In this document: one piece after another, positions 2,123-14,068 of the stretch | Numbering within the stretch: position 1 is the first letter of the stretch | Layout: each line of letters begins with the position of its first letter | Source of the DNA: Escherichia phage fEgEco12 | Sequence record: PP777464.1 | Strand: one strand, 5' to 3' | DNA length: 64,000 nucleotides | Made by a program: the position numbers and the translations under genes | The notes under the pieces: model-generated | Told to the model about the DNA's origin: nothing | What the model saw: the letters and a program-made list of their open reading frames with translations, nothing else | Databases searched by the model: none

Positions 2123-2150
2123 TTGCAAACTATGTTTAATGGCGTATAAT
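2123..2150 (+). promoter_or_regulatory. sigma70-like early promoter
   Basis: -35 TTGCAA, 16-nt spacer, -10 TATAAT, then GGGGAA-tag-TTCCCC hairpin. Confidence 0.6.
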
Positions 2151-2201
2151 GTTTTACATCAGGTGGGGAATAGTTCCCCCCTATATAAGAGGATTAAAAA
2201 A

Positions 2202-2441
2202 ATGGCTAAATCAAAAATGTTCTTAGGTCACAAAAACAAAACTCATTGGAATGTAAGCCTGTGGATTAATAACGATGAGGGATTGTATCGGTTGGCCCTG
2301 GACTTTATTGCCGCCAATACTAATCGCAATGATGCGGCCCGTCATATGATGTTATTTTTAGAACAGACTGGACAAGATAAAACACCGGACGGATTCAAAT
2401 ATAGCACTACTGCGATCCGTGCGGCGATGGTTGGAATGTAA
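2202..2441 (+). CDS. hypothetical early protein (79 aa)
   Basis: ATG 8 nt after GAGGA; upstream track start lies in promoter. Confidence 0.65.
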   Translation: MAKSKMFLGHKNKTHWNVSLWINNDEGLYRLALDFIAANTNRNDAARHMMLFLEQTGQDKTPDGFKYSTTAIRAAMVGM

Positions 2442-3171: not shown

Positions 3172-3361
3172 GTATTCATTGGCAGATAAGCCGTAGCCCA
3201 TAGGGTGCGGGAGTGTATCTATAGAAAAAGTAGTTTATTACAGTTACAATTGTGCACCCGGTGGGTTAGCTGTTGTCATGGGGTATATTATGCCAGTACT
3301 TGATAATGCTGTCAATACTTTTTTTTACTATTCAGTACTGAAAACTATTTTTAAAAAGTAC

Positions 3362-3389
3362 TTGCAAACTATGTTTAAAGGCGTATAAT
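3362..3389 (+). promoter_or_regulatory. Consensus early promoter driving a non-coding element
   Basis: TTGCAA, 16 nt, TATAAT; no ORF before the next promoter at 3480. Confidence 0.55.
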
Positions 3390-3396
3390 GTTTTAC

Positions 3397-3478
3397 ATCA
3401 GGACGGGGAACGAAATAAGTAACTTCCCGTTAAGTAGCCCAGGAGTAAGGCACACGAAAAACTCCCCTGATAAAATAG
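3397..3478 (+). ncRNA. Candidate small RNA (about 80 nt)
   Basis: Promoter-driven, no start codon, predicted stem-loops; near-identical copy at 13650-13728, variant at 5947-6040. Confidence 0.35.
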
Positions 3479-3479
3479 T

Positions 3480-3507
3480 TTGACAAATGTTTTTAAAAGC
3501 GTATAAT
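3480..3507 (+). promoter_or_regulatory. sigma70-like promoter
   Basis: TTGACA, 16 nt, TATAAT upstream of 3540 gene. Confidence 0.6.
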
Positions 3508-3539: not shown

Positions 3540-4151
3540 ATGAAAACTATCACTACTACTACTTTCGTTATGGATTTTTCTGAATTGAACGCAGAACAAA
3601 AAACGTCAGCTATCGAACTGGTTCGGGAACGTGAAAAAAACTCAAACGACAATTATTTTTCTGAAAGTGAAATTGAATACTATAAAGAAACAGTACTACC
3701 GGAATATGGCATTAATGACGCTGAAATACAATTCAGTGGCTTTTGGTCCCAGGGTGACGGTGCATCAATCAGTACTGACCACGTTGACGCAGTGAAGTTT
3801 TTACGCAAGGTAAGAGCATTAACTAAGTATCGCTCAATCCGTCACTTGCTGAATGAAGATGATTTGGCGATGAGTGTAAAGCGTTCGCACTCCCACTACT
3901 CGCATGAGAATACTGTAAGCGGGTACATTGAATCGGCTTACACTGATTTAACCGCAAAACAAGAAACGTTAGTTAATGAGCTTGAGGAACTACTCACTGA
4001 AACTATTCGTGAATTATCCCGCAAGTTGTACCGTGATTTAGAGAATGCATATGAGGATCAATTCACTACTGAAAACATTACGGCACTGATTGAGGGTAAC
4101 GAGTATCAATTCAATGTTATTGATGGCGTAGTGGAATCAATCGAATATTAA
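3540..4151 (+). CDS. hypothetical early protein (203 aa)
   Basis: ORF track; promoter and RBS GAGGG; acidic protein, no family recognised. Confidence 0.7.
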   Translation: MKTITTTTFVMDFSELNAEQKTSAIELVREREKNSNDNYFSESEIEYYKETVLPEYGINDAEIQFSGFWSQGDGASISTDHVDAVKFLRKVRALTKYRSIRHLLNEDDLAMSVKRSHSHYSHENTVSGYIESAYTDLTAKQETLVNELEELLTETIRELSRKLYRDLENAYEDQFTTENITALIEGNEYQFNVIDGVVESIEY

Positions 4152-5841: not shown

Positions 5842-5870
5842 AGCCCACCTGGTGGGCTTTTTTGTTTTTG
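5842..5870 (+). terminator. Rho-independent terminator
   Basis: AGCCCACC/GGTGGGCT hairpin then TTTTTTGTTTTT. Confidence 0.65.
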
Positions 5871-5917: not shown

Positions 5918-5945
5918 TTGACATTACCACAGAAAAGCGTAGAAT
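5918..5945 (+). promoter_or_regulatory. sigma70-like promoter
   Basis: TTGACA, 16 nt, TAGAAT; long structured leader before 6069. Confidence 0.55.
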
Positions 5946-6068
5946 GTATTACATCAAGACGGGGAGCACTAAGTAGACCGCCAGTAAGTCGAACGAAAAA
6001 CTGGACACGTCGAGAAAACTTTGATACACTAATAAACGTAAACTAAACTTTAATTGAGGATTTATAAA

Positions 6069-6551
6069 ATGGCTAATGTAAAATCATTCATCAAAGCACT
6101 GGTAGCAAATGAAACTAACGTCGCGGCTGAGATCCTGGCTGAACTGGATAACGATACCATGAAAGCGGTACGCAATAATTTTAACATCGCGTACAGTACT
6201 GCGAAAGAACTACAAGCAAATAAAGCGGCAGAAATTGAAGCGGCAAAGGCGGCCCGTGAAGCAGAACTACAAGCAACAATCGAAAGTATTCAGGCGGCAG
6301 TAGTTGGATTGGATCTGGAAGTAGTTACAGAGATGGCACAAAAAGCCCTGGCGGTTAAGTATGGGGAAGACAAGCCAGAAGTAAAAGCCAAAAAATGGAT
6401 TCAGGAACGCGTAGCGGTAGTACTGGACAACGGGGAAGAATATCTGATTCCGGTGCGTGGTAACTGTATTGCGGTAGTACTGGACGCGATTAACTCCAGT
6501 GGTATGACTCGCGAGGAATGGATCGAAGCTCATCGCAAAGTTGAAGCATAA
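6069..6551 (+). CDS. hypothetical protein, Ala/Lys/Glu-rich (160 aa)
   Basis: ATG 8 nt after GAGGA; track start is an upstream TTG. Confidence 0.65.
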   Translation: MANVKSFIKALVANETNVAAEILAELDNDTMKAVRNNFNIAYSTAKELQANKAAEIEAAKAAREAELQATIESIQAAVVGLDLEVVTEMAQKALAVKYGEDKPEVKAKKWIQERVAVVLDNGEEYLIPVRGNCIAVVLDAINSSGMTREEWIEAHRKVEA

Positions 6552-6572: not shown

Positions 6573-6600
6573 AGCCCACCTTAAACAGTGGGCTTTTTTG
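6573..6600 (+). terminator. Rho-independent terminator
   Basis: AGCCCAC..GTGGGCT hairpin then TTTTTT. Confidence 0.65.
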
Positions 6601-7277: not shown

Positions 7278-7362
7278 AAAAGTACTTGCAAAGTAAATCG
7301 AATAAAGTATAATACATTACATCAAGGGGAGAAATGATTCTCCCCACTACAAGGAAACTAAT

Positions 7363-9488: not shown

Positions 9489-9605
9489 AAAAAGTGGTTG
9501 ACTCCGGTCAGCCATTTTGCTATTATATATTCATTGAGAGATAGCTCACTAGCCCACAGGGTGCATAAGTGTATCTATTATATAAGTATTGAGTACTGAA
9601 AACTA
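9489..9605 (+). repeat. Conserved intergenic module, copy 1 of 4
   Basis: TTGACTCCGGTCAG..TATTAT promoter inside near-palindrome, then box TAGCCCACAGGGTGCATAAGTGTATC; copies near 13487, 16755, 19507. Confidence 0.6.
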
Positions 9606-11149: not shown

Positions 11150-11244
11150 TCTATTGACAATATCCTCCAGTACTGGCATAATACTTACATCAAGACGAGA
11201 ACGTCACTAACCCATAGGGTGCACAAATGTAACTATATAATATC

Positions 11245-11315
11245 GATCAATAAATGATCAAAAAAGTACTGGATCAATTTAGCATAAGGCGTATAATTCT
11301 GATCAATTCTTGATC
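11245..11315. promoter_or_regulatory. Cluster of five GATC sites in (T)GATCAA context around a promoter
   Basis: GATC at 11245, 11256, 11272, 11301, 11312 within 71 bp. Confidence 0.6.
11270..11297 (+). promoter_or_regulatory. Promoter with GATC-containing degenerate -35
   Basis: Consensus -35 replaced by TGGATC; -10 TATAAT; two GATC just downstream. Confidence 0.5.
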
Positions 11316-11478
11316 AAAGGCAATATACGCAGTTGAATTTATATAGACAGTACAAAGGCGTTACTATTCGTGGTAATGCTGGTGGATATGTAGTATCATA
11401 TGGTTTGAATAAGATAAACACTAGTAGTATTATTGTAGCATTACAGTACTATAGTATTTTTATAATGAGGTTAAAATA

Positions 11479-13486: not shown

Positions 13487-13600
13487 AAAAAGGGATTGAC
13501 TCCGGTCAGTCCCTTTGCTATTATATACGCATAGAAACAAATTAGCCCACAGGGTGCATAAATGTATCTATTGTTTGCTGGTGGCTAGTACTGAAAACTA
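13487..13600 (+). repeat. Conserved intergenic module, copy 2
   Basis: Same TTGACTCCGGTCAG promoter and TAGCCCACAGGGTGCATAAATGTATC box; includes Chi at 13577. Confidence 0.6.
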
Positions 13601-13615: not shown

Positions 13616-13643
13616 TTGCATTGTACTTAGAATCAAGTATAAT
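13616..13643 (+). promoter_or_regulatory. Promoter driving second candidate sRNA
   Basis: TTGCAT, 16 nt, TATAAT. Confidence 0.5.
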
Positions 13644-13649
13644 GTTTTA

Positions 13650-13728
13650 CATCAGGACGGGGAACGAAATAAGTAACCCCGTTAAGTAGTCCAGGAGTAA
13701 GACATACGAAAAACTCCCCTGATAAAAT
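13650..13728 (+). ncRNA. Candidate small RNA, copy 2
   Basis: Near-identical to 3397-3478; compensatory change in first stem (ACGGGG/CCCCGT). Confidence 0.35.
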
Positions 13729-13731
13729 AGT

Positions 13732-13759
13732 TTGACAATAGAAAGTAAACGAGTATAAT
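13732..13759 (+). promoter_or_regulatory. sigma70-like promoter
   Basis: TTGACA, 16 nt, TATAAT upstream of 13793. Confidence 0.6.
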
Positions 13760-13792
13760 ACTTACATCAACCACTGATAAGGAAACATTAAA

Positions 13793-14068
13793 ATGCGGAC
13801 TTTACTTACAGCTAACGAAATCGAGCAAGTACTGACTACTAATCTGGAACAATGGAAACGTGAAGCAGATATCCAGGCGGTTCAATGCCTTAACGATAAG
13901 TTAACGCCAGATGACTTAAGCACGATTGTTGATCCACAATTTTATGAAGATATTCACGACACGTCTTTAAGCGTCGAGGATGTACTTGATAAGCACTACA
14001 TTGATACTGATTTACATGTTTACGGTCGTAAAAACTTTATCACTATTCACGACATTTACAATACTTAA
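13793..14068 (+). CDS. hypothetical protein (91 aa)
   Basis: ORF track; promoter and RBS AAGGAAA. Confidence 0.65.
   Translation: MRTLLTANEIEQVLTTNLEQWKREADIQAVQCLNDKLTPDDLSTIVDPQFYEDIHDTSLSVEDVLDKHYIDTDLHVYGRKNFITIHDIYNT

Follow-up and report, generated by a model that had tools for sequence, protein, structure and literature searches.

Three copies of an ORF-less element in the early region

What does a strong early promoter produce when no gene follows it? This question is raised by positions 3397-3478 of Escherichia phage fEgEco12 (sequence record PP777464.1), within the stretch of 64,000 nucleotides that we analysed as a whole and refer to as the window. The original prediction held that two consensus early promoters, at 3362-3389 and 13616-13643, are followed by an 80-nt structured sequence in place of a gene, and that this sequence might be a phage small RNA. 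The region around the 80-nt elements is 99-100% identical to the PBECO4/121Q-like jumbo coliphages, that is, to Asteriusvirus, and in the record of vB_Ec-M-J the matching position falls within an annotated direct terminal repeat (1-21,525). The three copies described below all sit within this 21.5-kb repeat, which corresponds approximately to the promoter-dense first ~20 kb of the window. There, a regular-expression scan of the + strand found 27 promoter-plus-start motifs, nearly all at 2.1-20.1 kb, and a repeat search sorted the early promoter cassettes into families, the largest of which has 17 copies. Between 2123 and 20128, about 25 near-identical sigma70 early promoters (e.g., 2802-2870, 7286-7350 and 17192-17260) carry an A/T-rich upstream stretch (AAAAAGTACTTGCA/TTGACA...TATAAT). 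Their start regions, AUCGAGAG(G/C)GGGA, match the initial transcribed sequence of the T7 A1 promoter (AUCGAGAGGGA). The order behind these promoters is a short 5′ hairpin, then an SD sequence, an ATG and a short ORF, and the hairpin, a G-run/C-run pairing of the form GGGGAGAA-N4-UUCUCCCC or similar, lies at about +6 behind nearly every early promoter at 2.1-20.1 kb.

Both promoters of the original prediction were recovered, as TTGCAA-16-TATAAT and TTGCAT-16-TATAAT; these promoters, and the copies, second promoters and ORFs given below, lie on the + strand. The first, P1 of the copy that we name W1 (3397-3471), spans 3335-3389 when its A/T-rich upstream stretch is included, with the -35 element at 3362-3367 and the -10 element at 3384-3389, and an alignment with the annotated T7 A1 start (CCA|TCGAGAGGG) places its predicted +1 at A3397. 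The second, at 13616-13643, is P1 of copy W2 (13651-13723). As had been claimed, each element ends at the next full promoter, P2, a TTGACA-16-TATAAT sequence (12/12) at 3480-3507 and 13732-13759. Behind the P2 of W1 come a short unstructured leader, an SD and the ATG at 3540 of an ORF of 203 aa (3540-4151, PHROG 5162), and behind that of W2 come an SD and the ATG at 13793 of an ORF of 91 aa (13793-14068, PHROG 14947). The usual 5′ hairpin is absent from these two P2 leaders (n=2). The identity of the two copies, put at about 95 percent, is 77 of 82 positions (94%), and each half of the 80-nt sequence occurs exactly twice in the window, where 0 occurrences are expected by chance. What had been read as a compensatory change in the first stem is really a 2-nt indel (AACTTCCCGT versus AACCCCGT), which re-registers the stem and keeps its pairing. 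The elements are ORF-less, as stated: they have no SD-led ORF and have stops in all three frames, and the sole ORF across W1 (3388-3483, 31 aa) has its ATG inside the -10 box and is cut short by the indel in W2. ARAGORN found no tRNA or tmRNA genes in the window.

A diverged third copy, proposed at 5947-6040, proved genuine. In the 64-kb window, a covariance model of the core scored 52.8 bits at 5969-6008 (W3, 5953-6025), 51.3 bits at 13682-13721 (W2) and 48.2 bits at 3430-3469 (W1), and the next best match reached 10.8 bits; the window thus holds exactly three copies, each starting from the predicted +1 of a sigma70 early promoter. W3 follows a TTGACA-16-TAGAAT promoter (5918-5945), which has a terminator-like hairpin just upstream (5842-5858). 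It has no second promoter and runs directly into the SD and the ATG at 6069, confirming its description as the leader of that gene (6069-6551, 160 aa, PHROG 27871), behind which lies another terminator-like hairpin (6573-6594). The proteins downstream of the three copies matched only PHROGs of unassigned function.

The same core in four phage groups

How widely is the element distributed? Blast retrieved 44 records of the W1 type, among them Asteriusvirus and, at 90-92% identity, phi92-like Justusliebigvirus (outra, muut and EmilieFrey) and rV5-like Vequintavirinae (A73, W70, A7_1 and A5-4). These relatives keep the promoter-element-promoter layout and have different downstream genes, so that the module adjoins different genes in outra, muut, A73, A7_1 and the window. 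Queries made from W3 or from a metagenomic jumbo-phage copy (L007) reached the Salmonella jumbo phages Munch and 7t3, Erwinia phage Hallingskeid, the rV5-like LTH01, the Klebsiella phages RaK2, K64-1 and KP13-7 and, unexpectedly, T7-like Yersinia phages and Pantoea phage LIMEzero. With T7 498-600 as the query, 491 phage records were matched, and the T7-type matches listed include T7, T7M, K1F, 13a and many phages of Klebsiella, Serratia, Citrobacter, Cronobacter and Aeromonas. In a pattern scan of IMG/VR, 44 loci fitted, and L007 was the only one that was not T7-like. The covariance-model search of related phages that had been proposed as a check gave 42-61 bits with the core model R1 in all of the copies, including T7 550-590, phiA1122, LIMEzero, RaK2, K64-1, Munch, Hallingskeid, LTH01 and EJP2, with the single exception of the error-ridden CMSTMSU record (33.7 bits). 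The same core is therefore present in four unrelated phage groups, namely, RaK2-like jumbo phages, rV5-like and phi92-like myoviruses, and T7-like phages, and in the first three it is always part of what is transcribed earliest from the leading genome end. On the host side, blastn against 5,426 E. coli genomes gave no match, and the sole match in a pattern scan of 185,579 species genomes was a chance one in a Bacilli MAG.

A sigma70 promoter always stands shortly before the motif and, in most cases, a second one shortly after it; the EJP2 copy, like W3, has no P2 and is directly the 5′ UTR of a gene. The module stands at no fixed distance from the -10 element of P2: the gap is 20 nt in T7 and 29 nt in W1, and it exceeds 100 nt in RaK2. 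Parts of the surroundings are also held in common: P2 and the gene behind W2 (13732-14068) are found in the phi92-like muut (L003 1580-1700), and in outra the element precedes a homologue of the window ORF at 2170 (window 2123-2250 versus L001 1580-1700), which argues that early-gene cassettes are exchanged between jumbo phages and 145-kb myoviruses. Promoter-flanked non-coding cassettes thus appear to pass between phage families in the way that ORFan cassettes do. As a separate observation, the leader after the second promoter of K64-1 (L064 548-620) reads AUCCAGUAAGCAUGGAU...AAUCACGAAAAACUUUC, echoing the loop motifs of hairpin PB (see below); judged by its sequence, this may be a decayed second copy below the model threshold.

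An invariant core with two closures

The claim that the element is structured was upheld by RNA folding for the two similar copies, with minimum free energies of -19.4 kcal/mol for W1 (z -2.4 against shuffles) and -21.0 kcal/mol for W2 (z -4.1). W3 alone folds no better than shuffles (z +0.2), and the structure given for it comes solely from comparison with its relatives. W1 and W2 form a three-way junction in which the closing helix P1 (AUCAGG/CCUGAU), beginning at the first transcribed base, is directly followed by hairpin PA, an 11-nt junction, UAAGUAG(C/U)CCA, and hairpin PB (GGAGU/ACUCC, loop AAG(G/A)CA(C/U)ACGAAAA), which leads straight back into P1. In W1, these parts are P1 at 3397-3402/3466-3471, PA at 3403-3430, the junction UAAGUAGCCCA at 3431-3441 and PB at 3442-3446/3461-3465 with the loop AAGGCACACGAAAA; in W2, they are P1 at 13651-13656/13718-13723, PA (ACGGGG/CCCCGU) at 13657-13682, the junction at 13683-13693 and PB at 13694-13698/13713-13717. 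PA is variable and is absent from W3, in which an outer helix (AUCAA/UUGAU, 5953-5957/6021-6025) and an inner helix (GACG/CGUC, 5958-5961/6008-6011) enclose the junction UAAGUAGACCG (5970-5980) and PB (CCAGU/ACUGG, 5981-5985/6000-6004), the stem of PB being doubly compensated relative to W1 (GG..CC to CC..GG). Across the family, the core consists of an invariant junction, (U)AAGUAG, and a PB of 4-5 bp with the loop UAAG-N4-ACGAA. Fifteen core columns, mostly unpaired, are invariant across phages that share hosts and not proteins.

A competing long-range GGGG:CCCC fold, put forward by RNAalifold and by paired +G/+C indels in muut, was rejected, being 6-11 kcal/mol worse than the three-way junction, and a forced alternative fold of W1 was 7 kcal/mol worse. 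Compared with outra (L001), muut (L003 1501-1580) has one additional G in the G-run of PA and one additional C in the C-run before P1; these indels are probably neutral or homopolymer sequencing errors.

Comparison across phages showed covariation in every helix of the element, that is, in P1 or the pseudoknot that replaces it, in PA and in PB. Gap-free T7-type, core-only and hand-registered alignments were used because MAFFT with RNAalifold misaligned the variable helices when the subtypes were mixed. In PB (24 sequences from all lineages), four of the five pairs covary, the fifth is either G-U or G-C, and pairing holds in 96.7% of cells; a G-U pair would read as C-A on the opposite strand, which identifies the transcribed + strand as the one that folds. 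In the P1, PA and PB helices of the myovirus/jumbo type, both sides have changed in 12 of 15 pairs, with about nine different P1 sequences, in a hand-registered alignment that is padded with N, so that its percentage of paired cells is true by construction. An independent duplex search placed the best pairing between the 5′ end and the 3′ side directly after PB in all 17 sequences scored, with p<=0.01 against shuffles in five of them and weaker values in the others, whose helices are short.

In the T7-like phages, the core is closed differently. In 25 distinct sequences, the loop of a preceding hairpin (hairpin A) pairs with the strand just after PB as GUCAA/UUGAC, GUCGGU/ACCGAC, GUCAUC/GAUGAC, GAUUAG/CUAAUC or GUCAC/GUGAC; both sides have changed in five of six pairs, and about 88-89.7% of cells are paired. 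Sliding the partner lowered the paired fraction to 16-38%, and none of 500 shuffles reached the observed score. The stem of hairpin A covaries too (CCGG, CCAG/CUGG, CCAC/GUGG and CGGG/CCCG). This loop-to-strand pairing is not found in the copies of the window. There is thus one invariant core with two closures, a three-way junction in the myoviruses, including the window, and an H-type pseudoknot in the T7-like phages. We regard these structural and homology claims as solid. In a structural reading of the T7 type, the purine-rich junction would form a long loop crossing the minor groove of hairpin A, a usual place of triplex contacts.

Might the sequence act only as DNA, as a spacer, an UP-like element or a recombination cassette between tandem promoters, with no function as RNA? 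Relative to T7 A2, the A-tract ACGAAAAAC occupies about -48 to -44, the position expected of an UP subsite, and the promoter cassettes here clearly recombine, like PeSL cassettes (PMC2839356). The three covarying helices and the strand-specific G-U pairs nevertheless speak against such a reading, as do the varying distance of the A-tract from P2 and the absence of any P2 for W3 and EJP2. In addition, the 3′ strand of the pseudoknot is separate from the next -35 element in Berlinvirus-like copies, and its pairing is therefore no by-product of promoter conservation. A role as DNA alone was already disfavoured, and we consider it highly improbable.

Several narrower DNA- and promoter-level candidates were likewise set aside: an UP element for P2, because the distance to P2 varies; a sigma-dependent pause at a fixed distance from P2, because the spacing varies; and an internal promoter with TAAGNC as the -10 element, because no -35 element stands at the right spacing.

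The counterpart in the early leader of T7

In T7 (NC_001604), the homologue lies at about nt 539-595 (core 550-590; 56 bits with R1), bracketed by the annotated starts of the early promoters A1 (498) and A2 (626). Its core reads CCGGGGUCAACCGG-AUAAGUAGACAG-CCUG-AUAAGUCGCACGAAAAA-CAGG-UA-UUGAC, and the final UUGACA is the -35 element of A2. T7 and other Studiervirinae share with the window the sequence (A/U)UAAGUAGACAG followed by the CCUG/CAGG hairpin with the loop (A)UAAGUC-N2-ACGAAAAA. As in the window, a strong sigma70 early promoter stands upstream, with a similar initial transcribed sequence (AUCGAGAGGG), a second promoter stands directly downstream, and the site is near a genome end. The two differ in topology: the partner of the strand that follows PB is the preceding hairpin loop in T7 and the 5′ end of the transcript in the window. 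T7-like transcripts also begin with a hairpin of their own and reach the module only after about 40 nt, whereas the closing helix of the myovirus type starts from +1/+2. Given the same core with another topology and another closing partner, the window copies can be regarded as a variant of the T7-type motif, and the P1-element-P2 unit as the counterpart of the A1-leader-A2 unit of T7.

A further difference concerns boxA. An rrn-type boxA (GCUCUUUAACAA) is found in the early leader of T7 after A3 (L017, 812-823), and a boxA stands 25-40 nt behind the motif in LIMEzero-like (L019, ~936-950) and Cronobacter Dev-CD-23823-like phages, as well as in L042 and L043; the + strand of the window has no such boxA.

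Few stretches of DNA have served transcription research as much as the A1-A2-A3 region of T7, whose sequence has been textbook material for decades; covariation now indicates a pseudoknotted RNA inside the A1 leader. In the literature that we searched by T7 sequence strings and by topic, with older subscription papers outside its reach, there was no description of the motif, of its pseudoknot or of its spread. Within that literature, the motif, the pseudoknot and the spread to jumbo, rV5-like and phi92-like phages are new, and what was already known is the T7 sequence itself.

Leader or small RNA

Is the product of P1 a discrete small RNA? The promoter, the non-coding character, the fold and the conservation of the predicted element all stood; its discreteness was not supported. 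No terminator-like site was found between the element and P2 or the ORF behind any copy, and the W3, EJP2 and T7 copies lie in leaders. The leader in T7 is that of A1, which is transcribed through A2 and A3 into gene 0.3 and is cut only at the RNase III site R0.3. P1 transcripts should consequently run through P2 into the ORF, and read-through into a long 5′ leader, which the original prediction had itself set against a small RNA, is what this layout points to. The module is thus likely to be the 5′ part of read-through early transcripts and not a terminated small RNA. A stable processed fragment is possible; we found no support for an involvement of Hfq or ProQ. From the position of P2, the transcripts that start there are predicted to be without the module.

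These results bear on the possibility that the module acts in trans as a discrete RNA, released by processing or surviving the decay of the leader, and serving either as a base-pairing small RNA or as a sponge or decoy directed at a host protein or host defence. It has its own cassette with a dedicated strong promoter in the place between promoters usually held by an ORF, is not tied to any particular gene, and has a compact pseudoknot or three-way-junction fold with invariant loops; it is also dispensable in a laboratory strain (see below), like many anti-defence functions. A distant jumbo relative offers a parallel: RNA-seq of PA5oct, a host RNA polymerase-dependent jumbo phage reported to be kin of 121Q/PBECO4, revealed two highly expressed ORF-less RNAs in the terminal repeat (PMC7318152). 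PA5oct infects Pseudomonas, however, and its two non-coding terminal-repeat transcripts, at 236 and 451 nt, have no copy of the module motif. The lack of a terminator or known processing site at the 3′ end, the position of the W3 and EJP2 copies as direct mRNA leaders and a target or partner that is still only hypothetical all count against action in trans, which we consider rather unlikely.

Another possibility is that the module is a 5′-end stabiliser or structural insulator with no specific ligand, an elaborated form of the 5′ hairpin of about 20 other early transcripts, which would protect P1 transcripts from 5′-end-dependent decay or shield the downstream SD from upstream folding. The GGGGAGAA-N4-UUCUCCCC hairpin behind nearly every early promoter, the start of the myovirus-type closing helix at +1/+2, and the P2 leaders behind W1 and W2, which do without that hairpin, fit such a function. 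On the other hand, a stabiliser has no need for 15 invariant unpaired nucleotides across four phage lineages, the T7-like module lies about 40 nt into the RNA behind a 5′ hairpin of its own, and the P2 leader in outra and A73 does have a hairpin. We assign a low probability to simple stabilisation or insulation but treat it, like action in trans, as a serious rival.

Comparison with known RNAs and cassettes

Rfam found nothing in the whole window at the gathering threshold, nor, at E<=10 or E<=1, in the element or in the leaders of T7, phiA1122 and LIMEzero. Could the leader nonetheless be a riboswitch or a self-cleaving ribozyme? Both kinds of RNA typically combine a junction or pseudoknot with unpaired nucleotides that do not vary, as this one does, and CUGAUAAG...CGAAA in T7 superficially resembles a hammerhead core. 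Apart from the missing family match, a riboswitch was rejected because there is no conserved expression platform and no gene association, the downstream genes being different. Self-cleaving ribozymes (hammerhead, pistol, twister and others) were rejected because the hammerhead-like letters are missing from most copies (CCAGUAAG and GGAGUAAG) and the hammerhead or pistol resemblance has the wrong topology; moreover, intact RNAs from A1 to the RNase III site R0.3 are seen in T7 infections. Either kind of RNA would be very surprising here.

In T4-type phages, PeSL (promoter-early stem-loop) cassettes, composed of a sigma70 promoter and a stem-loop, flank small ORFans (PMC2839356). The cassettes surrounding the element, including its flanking promoters, are of this type: there are dozens of near-identical sigma70 promoters with G-run/C-run stem-loops, and modules have been shuffled between cassettes. 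By this analogy, the early region of the window looks like an array of PeSL cassettes, here filling a jumbo phage terminal repeat. The element itself goes beyond a PeSL, which is a promoter with a simple stem-loop serving as terminator or attenuator, in that it adds a 75-nt multi-helix RNA with invariant loops in the place of the ORF.

The closest functional analogy is to the put RNAs of phage HK022, which suppress pausing and termination through the zinc-binding domain of the RNA polymerase β′ subunit. With a length of about 70 nt and two copies per genome, the put RNAs begin to pair at +3 of the PL transcript, contain a triplex and act on the polymerase that made them (PMC9378689). Like putL and putR, the module is a folded and apparently protein-independent RNA of about 70-80 nt that begins at +2/+3 of the transcript of an early promoter, is present in multiple copies in the genome and has tertiary structure. 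It differs from them in architecture, put consisting of two long stem-loops in a V shape and the module of a junction or pseudoknot. R1 reached at best 9.2 bits in HK022, at an unrelated site, and HK022 is absent from the blast matches of the elements; the analogy is weakened by this lack of sequence or model similarity. Rfam also found nothing in HK022 at 27.6-30.1 kb, a stretch assumed to cover the immunity and early-promoter region, in which the position of put is unconfirmed, but this silence says nothing about put-likeness because Rfam may hold no put model. As judged from its sequence, the module belongs to no named family, and the kind of RNA to which it would be assigned is that of promoter-proximal structured phage leader RNAs.

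A possible role for the module

Why should unrelated phages keep this RNA? Four lineages that share only enterobacterial hosts retain the same single-stranded nucleotides, so the RNA most likely binds a conserved host component. We propose a conserved early-leader RNA module that acts through a host factor. In this jumbo coliphage it makes up the start of the RNA produced by strong sigma70 early promoters of the terminal-repeat early region. A helix closes its core by joining the segment immediately 3′ of PB to a 5′ partner, which is the 5′ end of the transcript in the window and the other myoviruses and the loop of the preceding hairpin in T7-like phages. The host factor that we favour would be the elongating host RNA polymerase from which the RNA has just emerged, on which the module may act in cis by affecting pausing, Rho or processivity, as the put RNAs of HK022 do; alternatively, the RNA may bind a factor of host RNA decay or defence. 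The module would be moved between genes and phages by recombination at the promoter cassettes that flank it. Taken as a whole, this explanation is the best that we can offer, and we give it about an even chance; modification of RNA polymerase is our leading guess for the mechanism, by analogy with put.

Several findings temper a strictly put-like role. Early T7 transcripts from A1 stop efficiently at the early terminator TE, which disfavours put-like read-through of intrinsic terminators. Such a role is further disfavoured by the P2 transcripts, which are without the module, by the variable spacing between the module and P2, and by W3, whose unit consists of one gene between two terminator-like hairpins. 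A T7 deletion of about 3 kb that takes out A1-A3 leaves plaque formation on a laboratory strain normal (bioRxiv 10.1101/2021.08.23.457391), which indicates that the module is dispensable in T7 on that strain and also disfavours a put-like role.

A broader proposal would be that the module is a protein-independent RNA device common to most enterobacterial phages that start on host RNA polymerase, T7 included, and that it binds a conserved host machine. We hold this to be possible but doubtful. If it were true and the machine were the elongating RNA polymerase, put-like processivity RNAs would have a second class with a much wider distribution than put itself; in the other version, the machine would be a nuclease or defence sensor of the host, disabled by the first RNA that the phage makes. 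The T7 motif provides a defined, small and mutable handle on such questions, and its covarying helices permit clean compensatory tests of roles of the early leader beyond its promoters.

Other repeated non-coding elements in the window

The early region contains a second ORF-less, promoter-driven motif, AGCCCA(C/U)AGGGUGC..A(A/G)UGUA(U/A)CUAU, with 6 copies against 0.02 expected (3198-3222, 9550-9578, 11208-11236, 13543-13571, 16817-16845 and 19565-19590). Each copy lies 15-45 nt behind a sigma70-like promoter and ahead of the next promoter, and two of them immediately precede P1 of W1 and P1 of W2. Blast found this motif in 63 records across RaK2-like jumbo phages, with 3-8 copies each, and not in T7-like phages; the carriers are Asteriusvirus, Alcyoneusvirus, CBB, GAP32, Serratia phage BF and Erwinia phages. 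A 12-bp palindromic hairpin, AAAGGGATTGACTCCGGTCAGTCCCTTT, occurs at 9491-9526, 13489-13524, 16758-16793 and 19510-19545. Its right arm holds a -35 element (TTGACT-17-TATTAT), and the G17 record annotates a 'terminator' there; by its sequence, the hairpin resembles either a PeSL-like combination of stem-loop and promoter or an operator that overlaps a promoter. At 11153-11330, a TTGACA-17-CATAAT promoter is followed by an ORF-less stretch with a copy of the second motif, behind which the palindromes GATCAATAAATGATC and TGATCAATTCTTGATCA surround a TATAAT; this arrangement could be an operator-controlled promoter.
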